From: Bilabrum cf. latius
Lineage: Eukaryota
Assembly: GCA_965178125.1 (NCBI GenBank)
Contig: OZ237775.1
Coordinates: 310,001-374,000, forward strand
Direction: 5' to 3'
DNA length: 64,000 bases
A program made the translations under genes and the position numbers. Position 1 is the first letter of the stretch. Each line of letters starts with the position of its first letter. Positions 7,801 through 31,800 of this stretch are shown in pieces. The notes below the pieces were generated by a model. That model was not told where the DNA came from and did not search any database. It worked only from the letters and a program-made list of their open reading frames with translations.

Positions 7801-8299
7801 TTGAAGTGCGGCAGAGGTACACATAAAATACATGGAGTTGGCCAAGGGTATCCCCTGCGAGTACGACAGCACCTTCGCAGCTCGTGGTTGGCCACGAATC
7901 ACTAGAGTCGGGCAATGAACCGTCCGATTCGGCCATTACGCTATATCGTGCTGCAGTTGTTGCCATGAGTCGCTGCATTTCCCTGCTAAATCCAACGGAG
8001 ACGGGAAGCACGCAAATTGACGAAACTCCTGCCACCATTTCGAATGCGGCCGGAAGAATGGCGCAAGTCTGCCTGATGAGCAGAGTCATACCACGCACTC
8101 TACTAGTTTCTTTATGGTTTGAGGAGTCGGCCGAGCTGGACGAATCATCGCAAAGTGCGAAAGTTAGTGTGGCGTCGTTTCCAACGACAACAAGAGTGCC
8201 GCTCCCGATCGCCCCCTAGGCGCATTGTGGAGGCTCCTTCATGCTATCAGCTGAGCCAAAGCACAGCCAAACATCCCCACGCTATGAGATATCGACCAT
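4862..8299 (-). CDS. RAB3GAP2: Rab3 GTPase-activating protein non-catalytic subunit (RAB3GAP2 N-terminal domain), ~1,145 aa with TAG read as sense
   Basis: Motifs LSPDAMRVLSTDSLGRV..CVRMWKGYRHAQVAWV..TYVPKRRLLEVW and LLAVGHEPMF..VRGIASSFFGG resemble RAB3GAP2_N. Track ORFs 5042, 5420, 5849, 6134, 6737 and 7652 are one frame joined through TAGs. ATG at 8297-8299 (start inferred), TGA at 4862-4864. Confidence 0.8.
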
Positions 8300-8612
8300 A
8301 ATTTGTAAAAATGCCAATTCAGTTTGCTGTTCATGTACTAGCAGAAACCGGAACCGGAAGCACAAGCACAGCCGAGTGCTCCCGTCGCCCGGGGGATCAC
8401 AAATTCACACAATACAAAGGTAAACATCCTTCAGGCAGGCTCGTGCAGCCAATCGTCGCGCTGCCTGGACGTCAAGGCGCTGGACATCTGCTGGCATGTC
8501 TCTACCCAACCACACTGCAGGCTCGCTCGCCCCAAGCACCTCACTGGCAGCTTCAAACCACTCTTTTGGATAGGGAACCATACAGTCGCTTCGTGACCTA
8601 GCAATTTGATAT

Positions 8613-11600: not shown

Positions 11601-14600
11601 AACCGATTTTTCCTGCTTCCTCTTCTTGATCAACCGTTTGTCGATCTTCTTCATCGCGTAGACGTTGCCCGTCTGCTTGCACCGTGCAGCGTACACGGTG
11701 GCATACCCTCCTTTGCCCACCTGACCCAACCAGTCGTAGCTATCCACATCAGGCACCTTCCATCGTTTTACAGACTCATCGATCCGCATCCACAAATCGA
11801 AGAAGGGACTCTGACAAAAGCCCTGAAACACAGTCTCCTTGATAGTTCGCACCACTAGAACGATGATTTCGTCGAACAGCTCCTGCGAATAGTCGCCCCG
11901 CCTCTGCAGCTCCTAGATGGACCGCCACACGTTCATCGGATTCCGGAAGCGAAGTCCCGCGGCGTCAAAAGCGTCGTACAGAGCCATTGCTACGTCACTG
12001 GAGGTGGCTGGGGCGGCATCATCCCCCTCCTCATCGGCAAGCGCGTCGGCTTCCACTTCATACCCATGCCCCTTGCGGCAAGCCCTGCCACCACTTTGGT
12101 CGTGCATCTTCAGAGAGTCTCCTGTCGTCACATCTCTGCAGTGAAGCACGATGTCTTCGGGGATCGGCCATACGCCCAGCCAACTCACTGTGATCGGAAT
12201 CGAGCGGGGCGAGTCTGGGGATGCTTCCCGCTGCCTACCCCAGCGACTCGCGCGGAGTGGTGACACGCAGCTGTGGTCATACTGGGTGACTGGGCTGTCA
12301 TTCGAACCGTGCGGGTGCGTGATCGTCTATTGTGGCACTGTTTGGTTGCTGCTGCTGCGTATCACGGGCATCGGAATGCTTCGCGAGCTCATCACACGGG
12401 AGAGCGCAAGCAGCTAGCTATCTGCTCCATTGCTGCTGCTGCTGCCCGTGCCGCTGGCTGTGCCACTGACACCCTTCGCGTGCATACAGCTCATCTTCGA
12501 ATGCGACTGAGCAGAAGCTGCGCTCACCGCAGATTCAGTTGCTGAAGCAGCTTGTCCGCTGAGCGTACCACCCGAGGCAGTTTCGGATCGAGCTCGCCTG
12601 CCACCCCGACCACTGGCCGTGTCAGACAGCACCGATGCCCACTCGTCGCTAGCCGCTGATGGCGTCTCAGTGCCCGCCCTTGAGTCTGGAAGCGGGCCCA
12701 CGGCGTCGGCTTGTGGCACGCTAAGCTCCGGATGGTAAACATGGCGAGTTGATGGCGCACTGTTTGCTTTTGTCTAGGCATCAGCTCCAGCACCAGTGGG
12801 TTCGGAGCTGCCTGACTTTGCAGGCACTCGCAAAGTCCCATCGCAAGCGCCATCACCTGATCCGGATGGCTTGGATGCAGGCTATATCTGGGTCGCGCCG
12901 AGCGACAGCCTGCGGGGGCGTCGGTGTCTGGGTCCTCCTCGCGCGTCTGGGGTCGATGCACTATCCCAATCTGATGTTCCTGTTCCACCCCCGACCGCGC
13001 CACCGCTTCCGAATGGCCCCATTTCAACTGAATTGCTTCTTGATTTTCGATTCGTTGCTTGGAACCTGGTCTGCACGTTCAGGTCGAGCCCAAGAACCTG
13101 CCCGATTCCCACCGGCTGCTGGGCAAGTTGCCGTTGATGATGCAGCTGGTGTGCTTGGATCAGACCGGATACACTGCCGCTGGAAGACCGCGAATGCCTC
13201 TCCATCTCCTGTCCAAACGGCAGGGGGGGGAAGAATGAGCTCGATGCCATCTCATCGCTCAGAGCGGGTGCTTCGGTGCTGTTCTCGGAGGATTCTCCAT
13301 TCACGTCCCAAACAGCTGCCACAGCGCCTGCTTGGATCTGGCCCAGCGAACGATCCCCGCTCACGCCCGCACTCGTCACACTCTGGACCGCCACACCGGT
13401 GCCTGCTCCTTGCGGCGGACTGCTCACGCCACTGCGTGTATACCCCTTACCATGCTGCTCGTAGGCACCCACGGCAACAGGCAGCGGTAGTTGCGCTCCT
13501 GAGCCAGCTTTTGTCGATCTGCCTGCCGTGCCCAGCAGATGGGAGTGTAGGTCAGCAGAGTCCACGCTTCGATTCCCGCCATCGTCGTATCCACCATTGT
13601 GCTGAGACTGGCACTACCCTGGAGTCTGTGACGAGGCACCTCCGATGGACCTTGGGCCGACTGCAGGCTGATCCCAGCTGCCCACCATCGAGCCAGCCGG
13701 CGTGCTGGCTGGAGTGTCCGCGAACCCAAAGGAGCTGGCCCGGGCTTCTCGGCAAACCCTCGAGCGACGTCCCTCGGTGCTAGCGGTCTGCGCACTCGAT
13801 CGTACGATGGGGGCGGTGCCCGTCCCTGTGCTGCCCTTCGATTTGTGCTGGTGCAATTGCAATTGCCCCTCTAGCACTTCTTGCCTCGCAGCCAGCCTAG
13901 CTGACTGCCCGCGCGACGTGGGTGCTTCCGCACTTCTTGCGGCCAAAAGTGCTCCCATGGGACTCCAGCTCCCTACTAATCCAATGATGTTCTTGTCCCG
14001 CTCTGGCGTGCCAAAGGCTGCGGGACTGCAGGGCTTGGCAGTGGTACCACTGGCGGTTGTTCGTAGCGGCGACGACTCGGATGGGTCGACTGTTCTTCCC
14101 GGTGCGAAGTCGCCGTGATCGGAGGGCTTGGTCCCTAGTGGTGAAATTGCTTCTTCCTTCGCATGTTTGACATCATCTGCAGGCGCAGAAGCGCAGTCTG
14201 GGTTGCCTGGTTCGCCTTCATCATTGGTTGCCGCGCGGCGCTATTGACCAAGCAAGCCTGCACCCCCCGCAGGATGAAGGGCGCCAGTGCGCTTCAAAGC
14301 AGACTTTTTGTCTGTCACTGCTACTGTTCCTGTCGATGAAACTAGAGCAACATCGGTACCCTGAGAGACATCCAAAATCTTTGAGATCTGCACCGGTCCT
14401 ACTTCGAGCAAGATTTGGTCAGTGTTCTTCGACCCATTTTGTCTTTCCCTGAGACGCGAAATATCATGAGATGAATGCAGCTGCAGATGCCCGTCTTTGC
14501 CGGCGTTCGACTAGCCTGAATCGGTATCAAGCTGGCATGATGCCCTCATTGCTGCGACACTCGGATTCGCACGCGCAGACTTTCGGTGCCGGGCTCTGGC

Positions 14601-15165
14601 ACTCATTTGTACCACATCAGGCTTGAATGCATCAATAATAGCTTTAGACCTGCAAAAGTATGAAGGGTGGCTCAGAAACATCGTCAAAATGCAGTGGGAA
14701 GAAACACGGCGTCACACCCCTCCGTGGCCCCGCAAACATTAGAACAGCTTGGGTTAACATCCGCGCGGCTTTTTCGAATGGATACACAAGTCATACGTGA
14801 AGCAGCTGCAGGATAGCACCCGTAGGCTAGGCGTATGTGGTTTTCGCTCACAAATGCACTCGTGCATCCCTGCCATGCGTGCGCCGATACAACAGACCAG
14901 CTTGCAGCAGGCGCACCAAGTAGTCCTATCTGGTACAATATATGTACGACTCGAGCATCGCATACCCCGCTGGTGATTCCATCGCCTATTGAAGCGGCGG
15001 GGCGCAGTAGGATCCCGGAGGAGGTGCCGTTACACCACGGGCTGCTTTCGATTCTATGCTGATGTCCATACTGCTCATTTTACCGGACCTTTCGCCAGAG
15101 AGCATTTTTCGCAGTATCCATGTCTCTTCCGGACTAAGGCTAGCTGCGTATCCCTCGGATGCCAT
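8613..15165 (-). CDS. RGS-domain plus AGC kinase protein, G protein-coupled receptor kinase (GRK)-like, ~2,116 aa; exons 15165-14852 and 14649-8613
   Basis: Kinase motifs GKGGYATV, YAMKKIDK, HRDIKPANVL, SDMGLA and GTPGFWAPE. The AGC tail continues past TAG 10653 (LTAADQ*HYVGFEY). RGS C-terminal helices ELFDEIIVLVVRTIKETVFQGFCQSPFF lie just before the kinase. The RGS N-half (AMESPAGYAMLESYI..LLYRR..RVHL/SKAIIDAF) spans the intron. One frame interrupted only by TAG; ends at TGA 8613-8615. Confidence 0.8.
14650..14851 (-). other. Spliceosomal intron (202 nt, phase 2) in the GRK-like gene
   Basis: Donor GTGAGC at 14851 and acceptor TTTTGCAG ending 14650. Splicing joins TT+G (Leu), restores the frame inside the RGS motif and removes in-frame TGAs. 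Confidence 0.75.
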
Positions 15166-15651
15166 TGCGGATTGAATTGTGATGTGGGTGCGAATGGCTT
15201 CACAACCACAATTGTCGCCGACGCGAGACAAATAAATCGCCGATTCGGAGTATTTCCTGATGCGGTAAATTGTCCGATGAAGTGCAGCCAAATACAAAGT
15301 TAGACAAAGATACTATACAATTGTCGGAGGAAGTGCCGCAATTTAAACAGTTGATTCAATCTTAGTACTTGGTTGTCAGGAGTCCGCACCTGGAGCGCTA
15401 CACGCTCTACTGATGCGCAGAAGGACATCCATTTGGGTTACTAGATGAGTGTGGTGGTACCACCAACAAAATACAAAGGGCATATTTTGACGAAAGGTTT
15501 CAGCATTCCATCGCCAAACTTGGCGCATGCAGGGGCGCTCGGCTCTTCGGACCGATTCCGAGTCGGCTAACGAACATCCTGCGAACGTTCTCTGTATTTT
15601 GGTTAACCCAACATTAGCTAAATCTACATCAATGCGCAGTCTCTCGACACG

Positions 15652-16450
15652 ATGAGCAATCTTCCGAGTGATTTTTTCAATTAGGATAATCGTACACCTC
15701 GGGAGGATTCCGAAGCCACGTCCAAGGAAGACAATGATCTCGCAGTTCTACTTGCTGAGGCAGCTGTATCCGATGAGCCGCCCCAGGCAATCGATGGGCG
15801 CTCTGCAAGTCAAGATATAGAGTCGGAAGTAGGATCGGTTTCAACAGCCAGACTGGCAGCTGTTGAGCAAGGGTAAGCTGCGGCTGCAATATATACCAAA
15901 CCCGTGCCAGTATTCAAGCCAATCCGCATTGTTGCACATCTAGCTTCGACAACAACCGCAGGGTGTACGAACTACGAGTCGAAGAAGCGAAGCAGCAAGC
16001 TGGGGCGGGAAAGCGAGATCATGTGCGCAGCAGGCTCGACCACGGTCCCGCGCAGCAGGCTCGCGGCGCTACATTCGGCAGCACAGGCGAAGACGCTGCA
16101 TTCAGCCTCACCACTGCCGCCGTGATACCAGACGCGGCTCTATCAACCGAAGATGTGGTGCGTGTGCTGAGGGCGAAACGGAGGCGCGTGGGGGCGGGCC
16201 GATCTGCCGCTGGTACAGGTGCACAGACAAGCCAAGCTGCGCCTCTGGCAGCACATGCCGCAGTGGGGGTGATGGAGGGCGAGGGGCAGGGGGTGATGGA
16301 GGGCTAGGGGCAGGGGGTGATGGAGGGCTAGGGGCAGGGGGTGATGGAGGGCGAGAGGCCAGAGGCACCGTGGAAATCGGTGGGACTCAAGCGACCAAGG
16401 GAAGCCCCCACTGCCCATGACACACAAGGCGAAGCCATGGGTGGCGGCGT

Positions 16451-16500
<50 letters not shown>

Positions 16501-16682
16501 CTGCCACTGTTAGCAACCATGGCGAATGTGTAGGCACCAGCTTGGGCGCATTAGCGACCCCTGGCGACACGAAGCATGCTGAGTCTGGTTCCAAAGAAGC
16601 AGGCGGGGCAGGGAGGGGGGGTGCAGAGTAGGGCGAGGAGGACGAGCTTCTTGGACTGGTCGACTGGCGAGGACCCGGGTGA
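15652..16682 (+). CDS. ZNF830/CCDC16-like protein (C-terminal region only, no zinc finger seen), ~313 aa; exons 15652-15872 and 15962-16682
   Basis: MSNLPSDFFN resembles the LPxxFFD motif, VEQGVYELRVEEAK resembles EQ..YxRVExL, and the acidic C-terminus ends EEDELLGLVDWRGPG (DWR motif). The DWR motif is reached only by reading through TAG 16305, 16329 and 16629. TGA at 16680-16682. Family call is from remembered motifs. Confidence 0.5.
15873..15961 (+). other. Spliceosomal intron (89 nt, phase 2)
   Basis: GTAAGC...CCGCAG; splicing joins GG+G and links the 15652 frame to the 15963 frame. Confidence 0.7.
16269..16355 (+). repeat. 24-bp coding tandem repeat, ~3.6 copies (VMEG-[E/TAG]-GQG)
   Basis: Unit GTGATGGAGGGC[G/T]AGGGGCAGGGG starts at 16269, 16293, 16317 and (partial) 16341. 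Confidence 0.95.
16451..16500 (+). repeat. (CAG)16 microsatellite, read as poly-Ser (AGC) in the ZNF830-like frame
   Basis: Directly visible perfect trinucleotide run. Confidence 0.95.
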
Positions 16683-16995
16683 GCCAGTGTGGGCCCGGGT
16701 TGTGCTAGGACATTGGTTCAGTGCAGGGTGCGCTTTGCTAGGGCATGTGGTGCGCGCGTGCCCATGTGCATGCTCTAAGTCCATTGCAAGACTCGCTAGC
16801 TGCTCGATTCCTGCATGCGTTCGAGCAGCTAGACTAGCGACAGCAAGCCTAGTAGTTAGGTTCCGTTTGCTCGTGTCACACCCCGACCAACCAATCAGAT
16901 GCGCGAAATGGTTGCATTGTCTTGATAGACTGCATATGTCACTTCTGTGGCTCTATTCACCGCAAATCTCACTTGTTGCGGCCCGCTCAACTGCT

Positions 16996-17593
16996 TCACT
17001 GCCTCCCCTCGTCTGCCGCCGGCACATCGTCAGAACTAGCTAGCTGGACTGCCTCTTTTGAGCGTGCTTCCCAATCAAGACCTGCACCTTCTATCTGATA
17101 CTCTGGAGACGCGCGCCCCTTAAAGTACACTCTATCCCATTCCTGTTGGACACTGGGCGGCAGGGCGTTCAGGGCGCGCGGCCAGCAGTACTGCCCAGTC
17201 TCTCCATTATAGACCATCACCCATTCTTTCTTTCGAAATCCCCGAACCTTCTTCGACTTATCCTCAATCTCATGACCCTTAAATCGAAACAAACCCTTAA
17301 TCTTGGAGACGTGAGGCGTCTGCAAGTCCAAGAAAGGCGCGAAGCGACAGAATCAGGAAGGTCTGCAGACAGCCGTGCAGCTTTCCAGCAAGAACATATG
17401 ATTAACCTCAGAATAACATGAGACGCTGAAGACGGCATTCTCTCACTCTGTCCTTTCGTTTCGTTTCTAACACTCGCCAGTGTGTCCCGGGGTACTTCAA
17501 CCATGTCTTCCTCGTGTAATGAGATCCGTGGCCCAAGCTACGCATTCGCATAAGCAAGTTGACGAGTGAAACTCCATGCCTTGTCCTGGGCAT
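16996..17593 (-). CDS. MRPS34: Mitochondrial small-subunit ribosomal protein mS34-like, ~156 aa; exons 17593-17447 and 17319-16996
   Basis: LVNLLMRMRSLGHGSHYTRKTWLKYPGTHWRVLETK..SKIKGLFRFKG..KKVRGFRKKEW matches the mS34 pattern. Phase-0 intron GTGAGA...TTGCAG. TGA at 16996-16998; no in-frame TAG. Confidence 0.7.
17320..17446 (-). other. Spliceosomal intron (127 nt, phase 0) in the mS34-like gene
   Basis: Donor GTGAGA at 17446 and acceptor GACTTGCAG ending 17320; joins track ORFs 17408..17593 and 16996..17331 in frame. Confidence 0.75.
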
Positions 17594-17721
17594 GATTGGT
17601 AAACCTACTTGTAGTCCTTGCTCTCAGCAACTTGTTGAACACGCGGTTGCAACCTCTGTAGGGATGATCGGATCGACCGAGGCCACAAACGCGAAAGAGC
17701 ATTAAATAGGGGTATACAGCC
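17594..17721. promoter_or_regulatory. Putative bidirectional promoter (128 bp) between the divergent mS34 and eS7 start codons
   Basis: Only 128 bp separate ATG 17593 (-) from ATG 17722 (+). AT-rich ATTAAATA at 17701-17708. Confidence 0.5.
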
Positions 17722-18590
17722 ATGTTCACCGTGAGAATTTCGTATTGGATGCTTGATTTCGACTCAGATACTCACAATAGTTCATAGAACGGCTGGATTG
17801 TGGAACATGTTGGCAAGCGCCAGCGCTCTGAGGCCTTGTTAGGGACATCGCACCACCTCCGAATCCTCTTGTATCAAATATCTATGCCATCTTTTTTGCA
17901 GGGTTCCGAGAAGATCCGCAAGGAGAAGCCTAGCGAGCTGGAGAAGAACGTGGCCCAGCAGCTGATGCTGATCCAGGTGAGATACAGCTCCACTAGGGTT
18001 TCAACCGCTCTGTTAGTCCCTTCTCACAATTTGCTGCAATCCACTCGCTGTTTCAAGACTTTGATTTCATTCATGCTGCATTGCAGACTTCCTCCAAGTC
18101 GATCAAGGCCGAGCTGAAGCCTCTGTACTTTGTTGCTGCCCGGGAGCTGGATGTGGTGAACGCCCACCGCCAGGCCACCGGCCAGAAGGCTCTTGTGGTC
18201 TTCGTGCCTTGCGCCCAGCTGTCTTACTACAGGAAGATCCAGCGCCAGTTGGTTAGCGAGCTCGAGAAGAAGTTCACCGACACCCACGTCGTGATCGTGG
18301 CCCAGCGCACCGTGCTGCCCAAGAACTGCAACCGCGACCCCCGCTTCAAGGGCCCCCGCCCCAGGAGCAGGACCCTGACCAAGGTGCGCGAGGCTATGCT
18401 CGATGACCTTGTCTACCCCGCCGAGGTGGGCGGCAAGCGCACCCGCGTGCGCATGGATGGCACCAAGCTCCTCAAGGTGCAGCTGACCTCGAAGGATGCA
18501 GCCACCGAGGACAAGCTGGACACTTTCTCCACCGTGTACAGCACCCTCACCGATAAGAACACCGTGTTCAACCTGGCCAAGGGGCACTAA
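17722..18590 (+). CDS. RPS7: 40S ribosomal protein S7 (eS7), 195 aa; exons 17722-17730, 17902-17976 and 18087-18590
   Basis: MFT/GSEKIRKEKPSELEKNVAQ..KIQRQLVSELEKKF..HVVIVAQRTVLPK..RPRSRTLT..LDDLVYPAEVGGKRTRVRMDG..KLDTFSTVY. Introns GTGAGA..TTGCAG at 17731-17901 and 17977-18086. TAA at 18588-18590, at the expected C-terminus. Confidence 0.95.
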
Positions 18591-19010
18591 GCAACATGGC
18601 AATAATCTGAGGTTTGGGAGGAGGGTTGGGAACGTGGGGTGCGGCCATCGTCAGGTGTACCTGTCGCGTGTTACCGAGCTGCCCTCGTGTGGCAGGCTGC
18701 GCCAGAGTCATGGTCGGCGCAACCGCTGTTCTCATTGGTGGGTGTTAGGATGGCTGCTTGCGATCGGTCGATAGCAGTCGAGGTGGGCCTGGGGCGTACA
18801 ATGTGGGTTGTCTTGAGCGTTTTGCTCGCAGTCCAATTGAAGTCAAATTGTCCTTGCGCCGTCATTTCTGCATACTCCGAATAGATCCCAGCTTGTCATG
18901 AACCAGTGCGTCGTATTTCCTTGCATCGTGGTTTGCGTCAGTGGTTGCACTGCACTGCATGGTCTCTCGATCGGATCCTGGCTGAAGCCCTGCCACAATA
19001 TAAAGGCAGT

Positions 19011-20663
19011 ATGCCGGTAACAGCTGCAATTGTGGGGTCCGGCTGGGGGTGCAGTGTTCAAGTCCCTGCCTTCCGTCGTGCAGGTATCGAGCCAGTAGCC
19101 CTGGTTACGCGAAAAGGCAAGGAGAAGGCATCCGCGTTCGGCTTGCGTTCATATGCAAGCATCGAAGAGCTTGAGGAGAGTCTGTCCCAGTCGGAAGAAA
19201 AATTAGATATCATCAGTATCGTTACGCCGCCAGGAACACACCTGCCGAGGAGCACCGCTGCGTTGCGGTGTTGCCAGGTAGTGTTGTGCGAGAAGCCCAC
19301 AGCTCTGAATGCTGCTGAGGCCGATTCTCTGGAGAAAGCTGCGATGCAATCGAAAACTTCAGCACTCTTGATAGACCACGAGTTGAGATTCTTGCCGGCG
19401 ATTCGGTTCATGCGTGCGCTGGTATCAGCTGGATACTGCGGCACGGTGGTGGATGCTTGGGCGAAAGCCCTTCGGCCGGCAAGGCTGGGATTCGGTGGCG
19501 GAAGCGGAACCGTACATGGCTGGCACAACTGGTGGAGCGAGGCAGCGGAGGGCGGCGGCACCCTGGGCGCCATCTGCTCGCACCAATTCGACACGCTATC
19601 GCACGTGCTCGGTTTGGCCGGCGGCGAGCAGCTGCCGGAAGAGGCTGCCGGCGCGGAGAGTGGGGCAATTGCTGCGAGCATGGAACCATCTTCCACTAAA
19701 ACATACTCAGCCAAGTGCACTTGCTGCTTAAGGCGAGCATGGGACCGCAGGCCGGTGCCCAACGATGCAAGCGCCACCGACACGAGCCTCGGCGCCGCGC
19801 CCTCCTCCGCTGGCGGTTCCGCTGCGGCCCCGGGCGGCTCTGCGGAGCTGTCCGCAATCCGACTGGAGCCGGCAACTTCCGATGATGCCGCCACGTGCAT
19901 GCTGAAGGTGAATGTGTTCCCTCGCCCTCGCGCCTCCCCAGTGGCAGTGAAGGGAGAGTTGGAGGCATCCACGAAAGGCGGCTCTTCTGCGTCTGCTGGC
20001 TCTGGCTCTGCGGAACCGGTCCCTGTCGGCGCCGCGCGAACTGAAGAAGCGGTGAGGCCGCTGGACCCCCGGTCAAGCTATCCGTTGAGCATCAGGATCG
20101 AGGCAGACCTGATGCACGCGGGGCCTCGGGGCGGGTTCGGGTTCGGGATCGTTGGCCGGAGGGCCACGCTCGTGTATGAAGGGGGCTAGCTCGTGGGTTA
20201 TCCACACGCGCGGGAGGGTGGGGCCGGGCAGGAGGGTAACGTGCTGTTTGAGACCGAGTATTACGAGAGCGACGGCAGAGGGGCGAGCGGTTTGGGGGAG
20301 ACCGGCCCACCGTCCCAGCGGATACCAAAGAGCGACTTTGCCACGGCCACCGTGCACCTGGCCAGGGCCTGCAAGGCTCACCTCACCGGGCTGGCGGTGG
20401 ACTCTGGTGTGACGAGTGAGCAGGTCGGAAGGGCAAAGGCGGCTCTGGCGTCGGACGCGTGCGCGGCCGAGTCCGGGATCGCGGATGCATTGAAGCGATC
20501 GGAGCCGGGCGAGCTGTTGCCCGGGCTGCGCTTGGATACGTTCTAGCCTGCCGATTTCCTGCGGCTGGGCGCGTCCGCTGCGAGAGGGGCGGTCATCCAG
20601 CGATTCCTCGACGCGTGCAGGAAGGCGGACGCGGGCTGCACCTGGGAAGACGTTGCGCTATGA
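19011..20663 (+). CDS. Gfo/Idh/MocA-family NAD(P)-dependent oxidoreductase, ~550 aa, two in-frame TAG
   Basis: AAIVGSGWG Rossmann start, IISIVTPPGTH, VLCEKP, IDHELRFLP, WWSEAAEGGGTLGAICSHQFD. The frame continues through TAG 20187 and 20544 to a family-like C-terminal helix (AVIQRFLDACRKADAGCTWEDV) and TGA 20661-20663. Confidence 0.85.
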
Positions 20664-20805
20664 GGGGCGTATCCGGGGCTTCGGGGGTTATGTGTGCGTG
20701 CGGATATGCACGCGTCTCGTACGGATTTGCAGTTCAGCAGCTCCGTCAGACGCTGGTCGTCACACAGCCGCTTTGGCTAGCGCGCTTCAGAAGTCGGTGT
20801 TTGGG

Positions 20806-23800
20806 ATGAATGCCCGGTGCGTAGCTATACGCAGACAGCAGTACCGATAGTTTGTTTGTTCGAGTCTCTTGTATCATAGCATTCGACGGATTCAGTGCAG
20901 TGCCTGCGTGGTATCACCATGCATTCGCACACGTCACAGGCAAAAAGCCAGCCGGGTGGCAGCTTTGAAGCAATGGATTCACGCATCTGCTGCTTCTGGC
21001 CGCACAACAAATCACTACCGGGTCCTTGGCGTCGCTCAGTCGGCAAGTACGGAGCAGATCCGCGGGGCATTTGCGAGACGCGTAAAACAGCTGCACCCTG
21101 ACGCGCAGAATGCCGGTTCAATCTACACAAAGAGTGGCCATGAGGAGTTCATATCACTTGTGGCAAGCTATGAAGTGTTGCGCAACCCAGGGAAGCGCGC
21201 AGAGTACGACCGAGAGGTAGCTGGTATGGGACCATCCGGAACTGGCGGCCACGCCTCGCCGCGGCCACAGGACCACAGGGACCCCTTTGGGTACGAAAGA
21301 GGTTTTCACGACCCTGACTTCCAGGATCGGGATCCGGGACCAGGTGCAACTTACTCGCGCAGTGAAAGCGGCGCTCGCCATCAGCGCCCTGCCAGTGCCA
21401 GTGATCCAGGGTTCGAAGAGGGAGCGGATTTTGGCATGGGAGGAGACTGGGCCCGCGCTGCAAGGATGGACCAGGAAGCGCACTCATCACACAGGTCGCA
21501 CACGTGGAACGAGCACGAACGTTCCTCAGGTGGCTGGGACCGACAGGCCCCCACCGGACAGTCCGGTGGGCACGGCAGGCCAGGCCCAAGCGCAGGCGCA
21601 GAAGCCATGGATCTGCTGAACGACGTCGCCGCTGCCTTGGGCCCTGCTGCTGTCCGGCACCTCCTGCGACCAGAGGTGCTCAGGGCCAGGGCGGCAACGG
21701 ATCCCAAGGGCGTGTGGGCGCGGCTCCTGCTCCTGTACGAGGGCGAGGGGCGCGGTTTCGACCCGAGGGGGGGTCAGTTCGACCCGAGGGGGGGTCAGTT
21801 CGACCCGAGGGGGGGTCAGTTCCAGCGGTGGGCCGAGGCGAGGACCAGCGCCCCTGCGAGCAAACTGGAATTGAATCGGAGCCGTGAGGCATTTTCCGAG
21901 GTTTGGCCGCGGTCGGTGTCGCTGGAAGAGCGCACGAGGCCGGGGGCGACTGACGACCTGCTGCACGCGTGCGTGGGCCGGCGGACCGTAGGGGTTGTAA
22001 GAGGCAGGACGGTCCCGAGGATTGGTCCCGGCGATGTGACGAGTGTGTCACTTCCTGGTCCTGGGGAGGCTCAGTCTCAGCTGCCCGCCGCTGCTCCAGC
22101 GGCTCCGGCCATAGCAGGTGAAACGGATGGGACGGCTCCTGATGTCGCGGCAGTCAGTGGGGCTGCGGCTGACGGGGGTGCTGGCGGCGCACGGACCGAG
22201 GCGATGAACAAGCAGCAGCTAAAGCATGAGTAGCCTCCCGATCGTGGGGGGAACAAGGTGAGATGCAATGATCGAGCAAGTCCTGGGCCAACTGCCAGTG
22301 GTCAGCGCGATAGTGGATTTCAGACGTCTCGCGCTTCCACTGGTACAAGCCATGGCCAGCCTAAGGGCACAAGCACGGACACAGGTGGCTCGGCGACTAA
22401 TAGCAAGACGGTGAATGCCCCAAGCAAGGGTACGGTCGGTTCAGGTGACTCGCCTGAAGGTGACTCGCCTGAAGGCGGCTGGGCGGACGAGGAGTTTGGG
22501 GCTGCTGCAGCGGCGTGGAGGCAAGCTGCCGCGTCGGCTGCATTCGTAGAGGGCGGCGCCGCGCACGCGCATGGAGGTTCCGCGAGCGCGGCGGTCGGGG
22601 GGCGGAGCTCCAGCCTCGTTGCAGGGAGGTACGACCGGCTGGAGTTTCATTTCCTTGGTCGTGTGGTGGCCAGCGCCGTCATGGTGGGCGACGGCGGTGG
22701 AATCTTCTCTGGTGCCGCCCGCGATTTGGACAGTGCAGGGAGGGCAGCATCCTGGGCGACGAAAGAAACAAACGACGCAAATTAGTCAAACATGACGAGC
22801 GGAGCAGGGGTAGAGCAAGAAATGGGTGGACAGAGTGGGTAGCCTGTCCGTGATGCTGCCACTGCCACCACGGGCGGTGAAGAAGTAAAGGGACAACACA
22901 CCACAGCAACAACGGACGGCGGCGACCTTGCCCAACCAGAAAACGAGTTGTCTGATGTTGGGGCGGTTGAACGTGCCAATGCAGCTGCATACTCGCACGG
23001 GGCGCCGTCGTCTGCTGAGAGCCAGACTTCGTCCGCTGGCCCCAGCCGCCGCGACGCTGACCCAAACTATGTGAGCCAAGACGTCGATGTTAATTTTCGA
23101 ACGGCTGGTGCAGTTGGGTGGGACAAGGCTTTCAACCGACCTGTGTCTGACTACGTGCTCTTGCTAGACCATAGCTCGCTCGACGGGATCGAGCGGCCCA
23201 TGGCGGTGATGCTTCCAGGCGAGTGGATAGGCCCCTCGTTCGTCAGGCCCATCGTCGGCTGTGACAGCGAGGGCTACCCCTTGCGGGAAGAGCTCCAGGT
23301 GAGACAGCCAAGTCAAAGGGATGTTAAAGCCCAAGAGCCTTTGGAACAGCGTGCTCATTCTAGCGGTGATGAGCGGGACACGGATGGCGAAAAAATCAGT
23401 CGAGATGCAGGCAAGAAAGCTGGTCTATAGGAGACACAAGCTGCGCAGACGCAAAGTGGAAGCGAGTCTAGAACGACCGCGAACGGTCAGTATAGGCCGC
23501 TGAGACGGTCGGCTGCAGCTGCTGCAGGGCTTGCCATCCGAGGATCTGAAGCGCGGTAGTCGGTGGGCGGCGGCAAAACTACTGGGAGTATTTCGAGTGC
23601 CGATCCATCCTATGATCCCAGTGCCGGGGGTCTCACTGTGTCACAGCGGCTGCCTGCATGGTTCAGGGGCAGCCAGCTCGCCATCCGAGAACGGTACGGC
23701 ATTGGCAAGCAGGCGGAAGAGCAGCAGCAACGTGCACAGAGGGGCATGGAAGAGCAGGGCCGTAGGGCAGGGGAAATCGATATGCGGCAGTTCACGAGGA

Positions 23801-25446
23801 ACATGAGCAGGTTTTTTGGGTGGGGTGATCCCAAGAATGCTTCTAATGAGGCAGAAGGTGGTAAAGACCGCCAGCCCGACGCACGGAGCGAATAGATTGC
23901 TGGCGGTCTTTACCCCCTTCCTGCAGCAACAGACCAATCTAGATCCACGGGGCGAGGCACGCACAGTGAGTAGACAGGCATGTATGGTCCCTAGGCGGGC
24001 ATGAACGACCGTCGACGAGCAGAGGTCCCAAATTCTTGCAGTAACGCAACGCGCGGGTCCGTCCCTCGTATTGGTAGCTGGCGAACTAGCATTCACCATG
24101 ATGGCGTGCAAGCTTTGTCATAGGCCACAGCCATAGATACCATAGCTGCCTAGCCCGTATCTGCAAGCGGAGCTGACCCAGGTGCGTCGAGTTTGCGCAC
24201 CGAAACGATTGGCGCAAATGAGACGGGCGGCGTTTCTGACCTGCTGGATGAGTCTATGCTGGTATCCGCCGGGCTTGCAAGGCCGAGTGAGTCGAGCAAG
24301 AGGGAGGCCTACGATAGAGCACAGGCAGCGATGCAACGTGCCACTGCGGCGCTGGACATGGAGGCTGAATCGCAGCTGATTGGTGAAAGGCCTACTGAGG
24401 CGGATGCAGGGCAGAGTGCTTTAGTTGGGAAACAGGGCCAGCAGGTGATCATTGAGCAGAATACTTCCGATGGTAAGAGGCGATTGCAGCGAGCAAAAAT
24501 GCGCTCTGCTTCTGTGGCTACCGGTGTCCGCAGTGCTGGTTTGAGCGATGTGGAGAATAGGCAGAGTGGACAGCGCGCTGCAAATGCAAGTCAGTGGGTC
24601 AATGGCAACACCACCTATGCTGATGATTCATCTCAAGACGAGCATGATGATCGCGATCAGCAGATGGACAATTCTGGGGGTGGTGAGAGCAAGGGCACGG
24701 GTGAAAGTGATGCATAGCCTGCGAGCAGCGCCGACGTCTCGCTGCGGTTTCTACCGAGGAGGAGCCTTGCCTCCCACAGCATCATCTCCATTGAATCTGC
24801 TCTGCAAACAGAGCTACAATTTATGCGGCATTCCGACGGATTTACCGAAGGCACAGTGGTCCGAAGCATCCTGCCGCACCCAGCCAGGGCGGTGTGGGGC
24901 TCGGTCAGCAGCAGACATGAGGGTGCTGCGTGGGAGCTCGAGACCGTCCGCAGACGGCGACGGCAGCAAGGCACTACTAGTAGCGAGAGTGGCCGCGCTT
25001 CTAGCGGTCAGGACACGGCAGGCTCGGGTTAGAGAAGGGGGATGGGGTGGGTCTTCGAGCATGAGGGCACGCTGCCGCCGCCTGCGTACGTCCTTGCAAC
25101 CGCTGTGGCGAGTCTCGAGCGGGAGTGGAGGGTAGAGCACCGGGCGGCGAGTGACGCTAGGAGCAGAGAATAGCTCCGCGCAAAGATTCCATCTGCTGCG
25201 TTGCATGGCATCCCAAAGGCAGTGAAGGAGGCAGCTCAAATGGCAGCAAAGCGGGTGCATGCTGCTATTCCCACCGAGGAGCAGCGATAGTAGGTTACTC
25301 AATCGGCCAAACATGCTTGGGACAAGGGCAGGATGTACTTTGGGGTTGGTTTGGGCGCAGTACGAGACGTGGGGGTGAAGGCCATGCGGTCGTTTCGGTC
25401 GATTCGACAACGACCCACAAAGGAGCAGCAACGAGGCCGTGATTAA
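20806..25446 (+). CDS. Large J-domain (DnaJ) protein with a possible mitochondrial presequence and a long low-complexity tail, ~1,546 aa
   Basis: NHYRVLGV..IRGAFARRVKQLHPD..SYEVLRNPGKRAEYD. Track ORFs 20869, 22258, 22948, 23563, 24193 and 24823 are one frame broken only by TAG; ends at TAA 25444-25446. Arg-rich, acid-free N-terminus from ATG 20806 (start inferred). Confidence 0.75.
21757..21822 (+). repeat. 21-bp coding tandem repeat x3 (FDPRGGQ)
   Basis: TTCGACCCGAGGGGGGGTCAG repeated three times. Confidence 0.95.
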
Positions 25447-25576: not shown

Positions 25577-27328
25577 TCAGCTCTTCGACATGTACCAGTT
25601 GTCGGGGAATCCCGCCGCCCGTCTCGCACTCACGTTGAAGGGCGGCTTGATCCCGCCCTTGAAATGCTTCTTCACCAGCGCCAGAAAACAGCTCCTCTTG
25701 ACCTCGACAGATTGAGCACCATCCTCTCTCCCTGCACGGCCCGCGGCAAACCCATCCGACTTGTCCGCGTGTCCATATCTGGATGTTGCGCCCATGCCAG
25801 ACTCGGAGCTAGCAGCCTTGGTGGAGCCTGTGGCTGCCCCTGGGTCTGCTGCTCCGCCCGATGGATCGTCAATACCTTTGCCACTATCAGTCCCACGTGA
25901 GGCCTATTCGCTACTTGGTGCTGGCTCGGTAAGGGCCACGTCATCAGCATGGCTGGTACTGGCCTGCACTGAAGCAGAGCAAGGCTTGTCGCCGGCTACT
26001 ACACCCGCACTGCCGGCACCGAGTGAGGATTCCCCTATGGCGACTGATTCCGCACCGAGTGCCTTGAGGTCGTGCGCCTCGTGTCCCCTGTCGCCGTGCT
26101 CGAAGGTCCACTTGAACCACTTTACCCCAGCTCCAACATGGCCGACCTCGTCCGTGGCGTTGCGCTTGAGCATGTCTGCGTCCGCCTTGTCGCTGGGTGC
26201 CTGTGACCTAGAGAGTCTGCCGTGCATGCCAGGGAACACATCTAGTCCTCGCGCCTCGTGGGTCATGTGCACTGCAACGAGCCGCGCTGCGAGGCTCCCC
26301 CTGCTGCCCCCCGCCGCGTCCCACAGAGTCGGTGTTGCGGCCATGCAGCCGTATTCGTGCCCCCTCCGTCGCAGCGACTCGGCCCACCCCTGAAAATGCA
26401 TGGTCTCTTCCGCGCCAACCTGCACCCAGTCGTCTAGAAACTCCGTGGGCATGCACTGCCGTACTGCGCCGACGTGCGGGGGTGGAGGTTCGCTACCAGT
26501 GCTGAGCGCCGCTTCTGCTTGCCCAGCACCGGCCCCTGAAGAGGAGGCGGATGCATCTTCCGCTTGCCCAGCACCGGCCCCTGAAGAGGAGGCGGATGCC
26601 TCTTCCGCCTGCCCAGCACTCGTTCCCCTACAAGTGCTGCTAGGGGCACTAGTATCAGTGGGTGGTGCTTCGCGCCCCCGGCAATCATACCTGCCAGTGG
26701 CAGCCAATCCGTCATCACTGGCAGGCGTCGATCTGCCTTCTGCTCTCTCGAAGCCGAACCTGGCGACGAGGTCCCAGGCGAGGTCGATGGCGTAGCTCTC
26801 CGCGTGTGCAAGCCCGTGGATTGCGACGACTTTCCGACTGATTCCTTTGGTGTTCGCAAACTCTCCCTTGCCGAGCATTTTTACTTCTGGCGGCCGCGAA
26901 GGTGCGTCCTGCAGGTAGTCATACGATTCGCTTGCAGCTGGTTCTCTAGCTGTAGCGGTGCCTCGATCAATCTTGCAATCACAAACTTTGAATGTCCCGT
27001 CGCTACATACATCTATTGGTCGTGGCGGCAGCGGACGGGATGGAGATTGAACCGCATCCAGTTGGCCCGACCACCACATGATGGCAAACAATGCCGAACG
27101 GGCAGCCTTCTCGACAGCGTTACCATCGCAATTCAGTATATCTAATGATGCTGAGTAAAGATCGCGGACGTTCTTTGGAGGGGTGACAGAAATGGGGCCG
27201 CCAGTGTCGACACGAGTGCACAAGTCATGCATAGCCCCCGAACACAACAACTGATAGAGGGCGCGAGCAACATCATTCCGACGATCTGCCAGACGACGAA
27301 GCTTCCATTCGTGCCTTTGTGGGTCCAT
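25577..27328 (-). CDS. DUF455 ferritin-like di-metal protein, ~583 aa, one in-frame TAG
   Basis: IHGLAHAESYAIDLAWDLVARF, EFLDDWVQVGAEETMHF, HEARGLD and DEVGHVGAGVKWF. The family C-terminal motif KHFKGGIKPPFNVSARRAAGF..WY lies in the same frame after TAG 25904. TGA at 25577-25579; start ATG 27326-27328 inferred. Confidence 0.85.
26513..26620 (-). repeat. 45-bp coding tandem repeat, ~2.4 copies (AGQAE[E/D]ASASSSGAG), inside the DUF455 insert
   Basis: GCCCAGCACCGGCCCCTGAAGAGGAGGCGGATGC recurs with 45-nt spacing on the + strand. Confidence 0.9.
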
Positions 27329-28796: not shown

Positions 28797-28882
28797 GCTT
28801 TAAGGACTAGCTCAGTCCTCTTTCGGTCCTGATCCAGATGCTTTAAGGACTAGCTCAGTCCTCTTTCGGTCCTGATCCAGAT
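28797..28882. repeat. Perfect 43-bp tandem duplication spanning the stop codon of the giant ORF
   Basis: GCTTTAAGGACTAGCTCAGTCCTCTTTCGGTCCTGATCCAGAT at 28797-28839 and 28840-28882. Confidence 0.95.
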
Positions 28883-31800
28883 TCCGACTCGGATGCGTTC
28901 TTCGTAGCACTCTTCCTCATTTTCCGCTACCTCACCTTTTGATTGGTCCTCTTGCTGAGCTACCTGAGCACTCCGTCGATTGTTCCACTGACCGGCTTGT
29001 CCTCGCCGGCAGTGGACTTGACAGCTTTTGACGAGTTTCGGAGCTACTCAATCTTCGCATCAATCATGCTTCGTCGAGATGCAGTCCCTCTACGACCTCG
29101 ACGACCACCGCCCTAAGGGACACCTTTGTTATCAAGCTGCGCTGGCTGAGAAGCAGCCGGGCCACTACGAAGGCGCCCCGCAGACGCAAGAGGGTTGCTC
29201 GACCGGATTTCACCAGACTCCGGCTTGGCCTTGGCCCCCTCCAGTAAGACTTGACGCTCGCTTGGGGTGGCAGATCCCGACAAGGAAGCCACTGCAGACT
29301 AAAGGCCAGTCGCGAGGGCAACCACAGAAGACGCTGCGCTATTGTGCCCACTGGCTGACTCCGCAGGTAATGAAGGCTTAGAACCTTCGGTCGGCTTTGG
29401 CCCCTTGGGCGGCTCTCTCTATTTCGGCCTGATGCTTGGACCAGATCGCAAGTGCTATGCGGATCCATCGGAAGACTCTGGCCGCGCCACCGCCTCGTGC
29501 CCGGAAGCGACTCCAAGTTGCGAAGCAGCCGCCATGCGGCGTCCATTCAAGGGATTTGGTACAGTGGACATTGATGACGTGCCCTTGGCGGAAGCACTTG
29601 CTGCATTTGCGATCGATTCTGCCCTTGTCGCCTTCCCAATCTGCGGCGCAGCCGAAGGATCGAATCGGGTCGGATCCCTCCGATCAGTAGCTGCTGCATC
29701 TGCCAAGCGCTTGGACTATTGTTCCCGGATGACGTCTGTAACATCTTTTGGCGAGCCACGGGGGGGATGCCTGGCAGTACCGCTTTCAAGCTGCGGGCCT
29801 CCGTGTCCTGCCGCGCTAGAGCGGTCTGGCTCACCGCCGCTCCCGTCTGCTCGCGATCCTACCATTGCTAGCGGGGACGTAGTTGATGCTCCGGATGTCT
29901 TGCTTTGAACACAGCACAACGCCGTGACCGCAGCTCCCGCCCCAACGCACAGCGGACTGCATAGCTCCGAAGTCTTCGCGTACGGCACGGCAAGCACACT
30001 GCTTATCACTGCAAAGAATGAATGAAGGTCCGTCCGGAAGTCCACTAGCACGCTTACGAATAGCACACCATTCGCAATCATCATGAACCACGCCGTCGTG
30101 GTCTCCGCAGACATGCCGTACACGGCCAGCGGGTCGTCGCGTCTCTCCAGCCGAATAGCAAATGCACCCAGCAGGGTCAGCAGGGCCACGACAAGCGCCC
30201 GCACATCCAGAGAGTTGAGCAGGTTGTCGTATTCCCATTTGGCAGCCGGCACCTGCCGGACCATGCGGCGGAATCGTGGCACTTCGTCATCCGCAGGCGC
30301 AGTCTCGCTCTCCTGTGAGGATGCAGCAGCAGCAGCAGCGCCCCTTCTTCCGCCCCGCTGCCTCTTTTCTCTCCGGCGTCTCTCCGCTCGCTTCCGCTCC
30401 CTGGCTGCCTCTTCATCCTCTTCGCTGATGATGTATAGGTCTACCTTGTTCCTCGCGCACACAAAGTAGTCGGCGTGTGACAAGTGGTGCTCGTCTAGCA
30501 TGTCGGGCTCGTCGTAGCAGTAGGGTAGCTGTATTCCACCCAGGTGTAGACCTGCGTCATCAGTTTGGATATCGGCTGAGTTGGATGCAGCACTGCCGAG
30601 CTGGGTCCGACGGAGAGGCAGCCGCTCGCCAATTCGGACTTCGCTTGACCGCTGCGGATCACTAGGTGCGGCACTCCTGGCTACAAGCCAACTGGGAAGC
30701 TGGTCGGAATTGGATCCGGCAGAGCCGGATATCTGGCAACTTGCTGCGGCTGATGCTCTGGCCCCGTCCCGTCCGGACGTTCCAGACTATCCTATTTGGC
30801 TCACATCTTTGCCACCGGGCCTGGTCTCAGCAACAAGCGGATTTGCACGTCGGGATTCGAGTAAAGTATGCACGCTGCTCCGGCGTGGTTTCACCTTCTT
30901 GGTATTGTCGGACTGCTCACGCGGCTTGAGCACCTCTCGAATCGACTTGTACGACTCGGAGTCTTGTGATGAGAGTTGGACGGTCTGGGCAGGGACAGCG
31001 CGGGCCCGGTACAGCCACCTGCGGATGGCGTCTCGTCGCTGGGCCTTTCTGTATCTCCGTGCCCGTGCATTGCACGCAACGAAGGGCCAACTAGACAGGC
31101 AGCAATACAGACAAGGGGTATCATCGTAGGGTTTCTCGAGAACGTCCGTCTCGTACAGGATGTAGTCTCTCTACGATGACGTGCCTGCAGTGTCCTCGCC
31201 GATTCCCTCGCTTATTGCCTGGAGGATGGAGCGGCATGTCTCCTTGTGGCGCTTGATCTTCTCTCTTAATGTCTACGCCTACGCTCGCTTCATTGCAATT
31301 GGCCAGTGCAAATGGAGGGCTGGGTCATGCTGCTCCAGATCCGGGGGTGGTGGCAGCCTGGTCTTGATTGCGTCCACCAGGTAGTCGAAGAGATGCTCGC
31401 TCCACTGTCTGTAGGCCGTGTCTTCCATTGTGTCCCATCGCACCTTGACCGCGGGCTGATCATCGGAGCTGCTGTGCTATGAAGCAGCGGCGTTCCCTTG
31501 CGAGGACATCGACGAATTGCGCTGCACAGCGAGGCTTTGCCTCCTGCGTGGTGCTTGGCCACCATGATTGAGATCATTTCTGTTTGAAGAATGCAACTGA
31601 GCTTGATTGGCTTCACCACCAGTTGTACTGTCCAGTGCACCGTCTGTCTCCTCCAGCACTACTTCGTGGTGCGAGTCGATCTTAGGCAGTGGGAGCTTGT
31701 CCTTGGTCAGCCTTGGGGCCTTCTCGTACGGTCGAGCAAACGACTGCAGCCCGAGGTACACCACGAGCACACCTACCATGAACAGGATCTGCACATCTGG

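Follow-up and report, generated by a model that had tools for sequence, protein, structure and literature searches.

Long reading frames of the 64-kb stretch of DNA analysed here (hereafter, the window; 52-64% G+C) carry numerous in-frame TAG codons. They raise the question of whether UAG alone has ceased to be a stop codon while UAA still terminates translation, as the first-pass annotation claimed. Eight genes were delimited in the window, with the ORF ends set by TAA and TGA. These genes comprise 19,299 codons and contain 168 in-frame TAG codons (~0.9% of in-frame codons), whereas neither TAA nor TGA occurs in frame; together with the two genes that end in TAA, this count bears out the claim that UAA remains a stop and is decoupled from UAG. 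Note that, because TAA and TGA define the ORF ends, there is some circularity in the absence of in-frame TAA from the short genes. The 35-kb frame escapes this problem; it is a giant minus-strand ORF at 28855-63999 with an open 5' end and a TGA terminator, and has 106 TAG but no TAA and no TGA among 11,714 sense codons, the lack of TAA having been noticed earlier for an ORF of more than 11,700 codons. In the two other frames of the strand carrying this ORF, the counts were 138 and 101 for TAG, 43 and 48 for TAA, and 199 and 315 for TGA. Base composition thus does not make TAA scarce, and with TAA and TGA together numbering 242 and 363 in those two frames, chance cannot account for a 35-kb frame that lacks both. 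If TAA shared the meaning of TAG, the 19,299 codons should contain 35 to 249 TAA in frame, as estimated by scaling the TAG count by the A/G ratio of any of 13 NNA/NNG codon pairs.

TGA is the terminator of six of the eight genes and TAA that of the other two. The earlier annotation had listed eight other genes ending in TGA; the TGA end was found for every gene concerned that could be delimited (6/6), while the number eight did not hold, only six being delimited. No ORF callable as a gene was found at 14.7-17.7 kb or at 27.4-28.8 kb. Three C-termini are anchored independently of ORF logic, namely those of RPS7 (TAA), a DUF455 gene (TGA) and a GFO/IDH/MocA oxidoreductase gene (TGA), so that two of the TGA genes have anchored ends; the other five gene ends are set by ORF logic.

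The TAA terminator of RPS7 (eS7), on the plus strand, was characterized by means of a spliced contig of the sequencing run X6. The 12-base loose end of this contig has a single match in the window, at 17719-17730, which places exon 1 (ATG and two codons) at 17722-17730, and the intron that follows is bounded by GT at 17731 and AG at 17900-17901. Exon 2 (25 codons) lies at 17902-17976. The contig then passes directly from 17973 to 18084, leaving out 110 bases, and the omitted segment has GT..AG ends if the cut is moved three places to the right, giving exon 3 (167 codons) at 18087-18587. The protein matches Pfam Ribosomal_S7e with an E-value of 2.7e-56 over profile positions 26-181 of 182, and the TAA at 18588-18590 follows the usual end of the family, where the ORFs of homologues, including those of relatives, stop at the same place. 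The claim that this TAA stands at the expected C-terminus is thus supported by both the profile end and the homologues, and a second in-frame TAA, five codons past the first, was found at 18603-18605 as had been described. The 3' UTR extends for 274 nt (18591-18864) to the poly(A) site, where the X6 contig reaches 18864 and its loose end consists of 24 A, representing a poly(A) tail; a contig of run X7 stops at 18860. No in-frame TAG is present in RPS7, exon 3 included.

The other genes contain TAG, and in several of them conserved sequence lies beyond it. The GFO/IDH/MocA gene (plus strand, 19011-20663; Pfam PF01408) ends in TGA at 20661-20663 and has in-frame TAG at 20187-20189 and 20544-20546. 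Relatives have R and Q at these two sites, and their ORFs stop at the same C-terminal residue as that of the window. Past the TAGs, the blocks show a weak match to the final part of the bacterial family profile. The last TAG is 39 codons from the stop, and the 38 residues after it are unchanged in each of the two relatives with coverage there. Translated with NCBI table 15, the gene is clean to its anchored end. In the DUF455 gene (minus strand, 25577-27328; TGA at 25577-25579), the Pfam profile is matched up to position 207 before the single TAG at 25904-25906, and the piece after the TAG, searched alone, matches positions 211-246 of 247 with an E-value of 2.7e-7. This match, reaching 246 of 247, ends four residues short of the TGA stop. 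These observations indicate that TAG is translated in the window's genes, as read from the sequence: conserved domain blocks continue past TAG, and relatives have sense residues there.

Further in-frame TAG codons were found in the remaining genes. The DnaJ-domain protein gene (plus strand, 20806-25446; Pfam DnaJ, E-value 3.5e-13) has 16, and it ends in TAA at 25444-25446; the coordinates given earlier for this terminator are right, with the C-terminus placed by ORF logic and not by a homology anchor. An AGC kinase gene similar to GRKs (minus strand, 8613-14687; Pfam Pkinase; TGA end) has 14, and a phmmer alignment with GRK2 spans a TAG in the kinase C-tail. A Rab3GAP2_N-containing ORF (minus strand, 4862-8365; TGA end) has 16, and an ORF of unknown family with an open 5' end (plus strand, 2-4648; TGA end) has 13. 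As for the giant ORF, its contents are a PAN domain and a transmembrane C-terminal part, with weak discoidin-like and weak DUF7630 matches, both under Pfam's cut-off. Contigs of runs X1 and X6 cover 28853-37799 of this ORF without a break. A word-based protein search with 5,000 of its residues, in which the words were thinly spread, returned only two self matches among 7,997 candidates scored.

The window was also compared with contigs of four of the 22 runs listed, carrying four organism codes. A single difference was found in 20 kb, and no indels or joints were present at TAG sites; in the parts covered, no substitutions were informative at TAG codons. None of the runs is recorded as RNA, and X6 is labelled 'probably DNA'. 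The persistence of TAG in mRNA is accordingly not proven by these contigs, as RNA origin is proven for the RPS7 contig only, which has no TAG. Among the eS7 matches listed, the best from beyond the small clade to which the organism belongs has 56% identity. Members of this clade are present in ENA, Logan and JGI data. A metagenome scan for relatives gave only a 41%-identical discoidin-domain match (L001), and scans of genome-contig and viral-contig collections found no relative.

Which amino acid does TAG specify? At the four window TAG sites covered by relatives, the relatives always have sense residues (W, Q, R and Q). Taken over seven informative positions, where the relatives' internal stops are known from proteins alone and are assumed to be TAG, the partner of TAG is Gln at four, Trp, Ser and Arg at one each, and Leu at none. 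The Ser partner comes from an internal stop of a relative opposite a TCG of the window. Another internal stop splits the GFO gene of one relative on a single 2060-bp contig, at a position where the window has CAG and the other relative Q, which suggests that readthrough of a stop codon occurs in that lineage too. In a simple codon-substitution model, the posterior for Gln ranged from 0.54 to 0.998 over the parameter grid, and that for all non-Gln meanings combined from 0.002 to 0.46. More distant comparisons were variable, with S, Y, Q and E in the homologue column at one TAG site, and T and S at another; alignments of the other distant homologues stop short of the TAG sites. The likelihood of neighbouring residues did not discriminate among identities of TAG, its ranking tracking amino-acid abundance. 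As judged from the seven positions and the substitution model, glutamine is the most likely meaning of TAG.

We consider it highly probable that the window derives from the nuclear genome of a G+C-rich, intron-poor eukaryote in which UAG has been lost as a stop and most likely encodes Gln, UAA and UGA being the sole terminators, as in NCBI table 15. The alternative closest to this reading, that the UAG-only reassignment gave a meaning different from Gln (the Ser of Scotinosphaera, for example, or else glutamate or tryptophan), appears rather unlikely. It would agree with the window TAG opposite W in a relative and the relative's internal stop opposite TCG (Ser), with a 24-bp repeat at 16265-16359 whose units vary between GAG and TAG, with the E of GRK2 opposite one TAG, and with two discoidin-domain columns opposite TAG that are rich in S and T. 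Such partners are explicable by mutation alone, because all are single-base neighbours of TAG. However, the combined posterior, the four Gln partners in seven and the lack of any Leu partner all argue for Gln. So does one of the Gln sites, at which the stop is confined to one relative, the window and the other relative both having Q. Still less probable is a context-dependent code of the type that Condylostoma, karyorelict ciliates and Blastocrithidia are reported to have for other stop codons, with UAG being sense within genes but also ending a number of them close to the 3' end. A gene truly ending at TAG would be invisible to ORF logic in our sample of eight genes, one TAG of the Rab3GAP2-like ORF lies only five codons before its TGA, and TAG ends were conjectured for some nuclear genes of Scotinosphaerales by the authors of PMC8271138. 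On the other hand, TAG is found at none of the three independently anchored C-termini, and the late TAG of the GFO gene is followed by the fully conserved 38 residues described above. In addition, McGowan et al. (PMC11687900) saw no dual meaning in the UAG-only ciliates that they studied.

Two other explanations concern the reality of the decoupling itself. Reassignment of both UAR codons (code 6), with TAA merely rare in a G+C-rich genome, could be entertained since the coupled change is the commonest variant according to PMC5304391, and the G+C content of the window would fit. This reading is strongly disfavoured, and we regard it as very improbable: where 35 or more in-frame TAA would have been predicted in 19,299 codons, none was seen, and out of frame TAA is frequent. 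Moreover, RPS7 stops at a TAA where proteins of its family usually end, and a 3' UTR and poly(A) tail come after it. Finally, pseudogenes, assembly errors or removal of TAG by RNA editing or splicing could have produced an artefact, for which it may be said that the only contig proven to be RNA-derived is that of RPS7, a gene without TAG. An artefact is scarcely credible, however, in view of the 35-kb frame free of TAA and TGA, the Pfam domains on both sides of TAGs, the agreement of four runs' contigs with the window, in which TAG sites show neither indels nor joints, and the frames kept in relatives.

Under the preferred reading, UAG read as glutamine with UAA and UGA as terminators, UAG would be decoded by a dedicated tRNA with the anticodon CUA, probably derived from tRNA-Gln(CUG), whose C34 would be unable to pair with the A of UAA. 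The N-domain of eRF1, whose third-base contacts include the GTS motif and the Leu69 region according to PMC5304391, may be altered such that UAA and UGA are still recognised and UAG is no longer competed for. This putative mechanism of eRF1 and tRNA(CUA) is a reasonable one. No tRNA or other Rfam family, and no eRF1 gene, was found in the 64-kb window.

The first-pass annotation had treated the decoupling as nearly unprecedented; the change is less new than that, UAG-only codes having already been reported in Iotanema, a rhizarian, Scotinosphaera and several ciliates. Specifically, PMC5304391, PMC11687900 and PMC8271138 between them report UAG-only reassignment in exLh, I. spirale, Scotinosphaera, the ciliates Protocruzia tuzeti, Hartmannula sinica and Trochilia petrani, and three uncultivated TARA ciliates. 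One ciliate is reported in these papers to have two different meanings for UAA and UAG. The UAG-only code change found here is thus of a rare but already described kind. NCBI table 15 (TAG as Q, TAA and TGA as stops) gives the same outcome, although the table denotes an outcome and not a lineage or mechanism.

The closest parallel in code is Iotanema spirale (Panek et al. 2017, PMC5304391), in which UAG encodes Gln with UAA and UGA as stops; here Gln is likewise probable, and the same mechanism, tRNA(CUA) with an altered eRF1, was inferred there. UAA is the primary terminator of I. spirale by the same source, whereas TGA ends 6 of 8 genes here, and its data are from a transcriptome only, in contrast to the genomic DNA of 52-64% G+C analysed in this study. 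In Hartmannula sinica, Trochilia petrani and Protocruzia tuzeti (McGowan et al. 2024, PMC11687900), UAG alone encodes Gln, as is probable here, and UAA is likewise a stop; however, UAA ends 86.9-98.3% of their genes and UGA the fewest, while TGA prevails in the window. Single-exon genes of 35 kb together with 58% G+C would hardly suggest a ciliate macronucleus. The rhizarian exLh and three TARA phyllopharyngean ciliates also have a UAG-only change with UAA and UGA as stops, and UAG is scarce or absent in their ribosomal-protein genes, as in RPS7 here, which has none. Their UAG encodes Leu, an amino acid that is the partner at 0/7 informative positions here, a small sample. Scotinosphaera sp. 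(Li et al. 2021, PMC8271138) shares the UAG-only change and the TAA and TGA terminators, but its TAG encodes Ser, which is the partner at 1/7 positions here. No green algae were among the named eS7 matches listed. Code 6 resembles the present case in that a stop codon was turned to sense, probably Gln here too, but TAA is never in frame in the window. Unlike in Condylostoma and Blastocrithidia, with their context-dependent stops, no sign of dual use was seen among the eight genes, a small sample.

There is some chance, although a small one, that the organism belongs to an undescribed deep-branching protist clade with its own UAG-only reassignment, a G+C-rich genome and UGA as the main terminator. 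In addition, the W, S, R and E partners beside Gln may mean that UAG is non-Gln, or is read by more than one tRNA. If real, such a non-Gln or multi-tRNA meaning of a nuclear UAG would be absent from the reports in PMC5304391, PMC11687900 and PMC8271138. No description of a G+C-rich UAG-only organism of this sort was found in searches of an open-access library and bioRxiv.

The finding also has consequences for annotation. Among the window's 10 longest ORFs under the standard code, just one had an entry in the protein collection, where it formed a singleton cluster. Since standard-code annotation shreds the genes and public collections hold only fragments of them, a table-15-like code is advisable for annotating this genome. 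Because UAA and UAG nearly always change jointly, any lineage in which their meanings have parted serves as a natural experiment. Decoupled lineages show how eRF1 discriminates UAA from UAG and how a CUA-anticodon tRNA captures a stop codon. Most of the published cases in the sources cited above rest on transcriptomes or metagenome bins of A+T-rich organisms whose genes end mainly in UAA, whereas the present case offers long genomic contigs of a G+C-rich organism in which most genes end in UGA. With such contigs at hand, and the same sequence in public runs, the suppressor tRNA and eRF1 should be easy to retrieve.

The window is eukaryotic nuclear DNA; it carries RPS7 with two GT..AG introns, and this gene is matched by a spliced, poly(A)-ended contig in one public run. 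G+C content across the 64-kb window ranges from 52 to 64%. Under the standard code the window falls apart into many short ORFs; taking TAG as an amino acid yields eight long genes instead, namely an ORF of unknown family with an open 5′ end (2-4648, plus strand), a Rab3GAP2_N-containing ORF (4862-8365, minus), a GRK-like AGC kinase (8613-14687, minus), RPS7 in three exons (17722-18590, plus), a GFO/IDH/MocA oxidoreductase (GFO; 19011-20663, plus), a DnaJ-domain protein (20806-25446, plus), a DUF455 protein (25577-27328, minus) and a giant ORF that extends beyond the window (28855-63999, minus). ORF inspection of the stretches at 14.7-17.7 kb and 27.4-28.8 kb gave no callable gene. The first of these (14700-17700) has lower G+C (51.8% at 14-16 kb), long, possibly coding ORFs that overlap in three frames, four copies of a 24-bp repeat, variable between GAG and TAG, and an uninterrupted (CAG) tract of 16.7 units. 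Among solved structures, the kinase matched animal G-protein-coupled receptor kinases best, and this alignment already begins upstream of the kinase domain. Its gene sits in an organism otherwise without close named relatives.

We counted 168 TAG, 0 TAA and 0 TGA as in-frame codons in all eight genes (19,299 codons). The giant ORF contains 106 in-frame TAG and no TGA, and the claim of the first-pass annotation that its more than 11,700 codons lack in-frame TAA was borne out (0 in 11,714 sense codons). In its two alternative frames, that strand has 43 and 48 TAA, and 199 and 315 TGA. If TAA were used beside TAG, between 35 and 249 TAA should have occurred in frame, the range being obtained by setting TAA:TAG to the A/G ratio of each of 13 NNA/NNG pairs. 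This codon pattern is real and far beyond chance, and the reading of TAG as sense and TAA as stop is well supported within the limit of eight genes.

TAG is translated, as indicated by three kinds of evidence beyond ORF length. In the DUF455 protein, the part after TAG alone matches profile positions 211-246 of 247 (E 2.7e-7), and the profile match of the part before TAG stops at position 207. The alignment of the kinase with GRK2 crosses a TAG in the C-tail, and in the GFO gene, blocks past both TAGs align weakly (conditional E 0.0013 and 0.0095) with the C-terminus of a profile made from 118 bacterial homologues. Close relatives, present as protein fragments in public collections (81-89% identity), have ordinary residues at all four window TAG sites that they cover, and the 38 residues past the last GFO TAG are identical in both relatives covering them. 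In one relative, the GFO gene is split into two ORFs on a single 2060-bp contig with its conserved C-terminal part intact, so that this relative seems to share the window's code.

RPS7 ends in TAA at 18588-18590, followed five codons later by a second in-frame TAA, and a TAA at 25444-25446 closes the DnaJ ORF, in agreement with the first-pass annotation, whose coordinates were all correct. That annotation also counted eight other genes ending in TGA; six were delimited, all with TGA. The RPS7 TAA lies five residues beyond the last residue aligned to the Pfam profile (position 181/182), at the usual end of homologues. A contig of the public sequencing run X6 is spliced across RPS7 intron 2, with a 12-base 5′ extension matching exon 1, and ends at 18864 plus 24 A, giving a 3′ UTR of 274 nt; a contig of another run, X7, ends at 18860 in the same 3′ region. 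The TGA of DUF455 is anchored by the end of the profile, and that of GFO by where the relatives' ORFs end. The TAA of the DnaJ gene has no homology anchor; 130 bases separate it from the stop codon of DUF455, its convergent neighbour. Of the three anchored gene ends, none is at TAG; note that TAG was scored as sense, so that a gene truly ending in TAG would go unseen, and that in one case a TAG stands five codons upstream of the gene's TGA.

Distant homologues were uninformative for the meaning of TAG because it falls in variable columns, and seven informative positions came from close relatives. In the giant ORF, the window TAG corresponds to W at site 1 and Q at site 2, and the window's TCG (Ser) at site 3 and CAG (Gln) at site 4 correspond to an internal ORF end in relatives. 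In GFO, TAG at residue 393 is R in two relatives, CAG (Gln) at residue 407 is Q in one relative and an internal stop in the other, and TAG at residue 512 is Q in two relatives. These relatives are known as proteins, not DNA, and their internal stops were therefore assumed to be TAG. The partner of TAG was thus Gln at 4/7 positions, W, S and R at one each, and Leu at none. Each single-step partner is a mutational neighbour of TAG, so we scored the partners under a simple model that takes in transition bias and purifying selection; the Gln posterior was 0.54 to 0.998 across the parameter grid, and the result stood when the GAG/TAG-variable 24-bp repeat was added as Glu evidence. From these comparisons, TAG probably encodes Gln.

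As a caveat on the Gln assignment, the contig with a TAG-free GFO gene seems also to carry an eS7 (the RPS7 product) identical to the window's, and may be a mosaic. For both P0205 (GFO) and P0210 (eS7), which are proteins of relatives, the longest contig on record measures 8163 bp. P0210 equals the window's eS7 except for the first residue (M; V in the window), whereas P0205 is 89% identical to the window's GFO and 98% to that of the other relative, a pattern on apparently one contig that points to a mosaic, a recombinant or a second haplotype. The window's GFO gene has a long low-complexity insert. Beyond its own clade, its closest homologues are bacterial, and those with names come mostly from Chloroflexi and Thermoanaerobaculia (37-46% identity across about one third of the protein); the gene may have been acquired from bacteria.

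The giant ORF stays open in a single frame for at least 11,714 codons, with no introns seen within its contig-covered part. A perfect 43-bp tandem duplication (28797-28882) spans its stop codon, and Logan contigs of the runs X1 and X6 break there. Its product, with a PAN domain, weak discoidin-like and DUF7630 matches (both below the Pfam cut-off), Ser/Thr/Pro-rich stretches and hydrophobic segments in the C-terminal part, may be a giant surface protein.

As for the mechanism, we infer that eRF1 would no longer recognise UAG and that a tRNA(CUA) would decode UAG yet not read UAA, as the first-pass annotation had proposed. The reasoning is standard for such codes: Panek et al. (PMC5304391) make the same argument for the rhizarian exLh and Iotanema, as do McGowan et al. 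(PMC11687900). Neither tRNA genes, with introns allowed, nor an eRF1 gene were found in the 64-kb window.

The organism appears isolated: beyond its own small clade, the closest eS7 match reaches only 56% identity. No published description of such an organism was found in the main texts of the open-access articles and bioRxiv preprints searched. Near-identical eS7 proteins of a relative (P0010, P0207-P0209; contigs up to 13.5 kb) occur in Logan, ENA and JGI/IMG, indicating that the clade recurs across public data sets. The window's reading is exactly that of NCBI table 15. In published reports, UAA is kept as stop with UAG read as Leu in exLh (PMC5304391) and three TARA phyllopharyngean ciliates (PMC11687900), as Gln in Iotanema spirale (PMC5304391), Hartmannula sinica, Trochilia petrani and Protocruzia tuzeti (PMC11687900), and as Ser in Scotinosphaera (PMC8271138); in the clade to which Iotanema belongs, this change is described as confined to the Iotanema lineage (PMC9161772). 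Unlike the published UAG-only cases compared, the window has high G+C, and TGA ends six of its eight genes, whereas UAA dominates in Iotanema and the ciliates. UAG-only reassignment itself is already known, and the window adds another case, not a new type.
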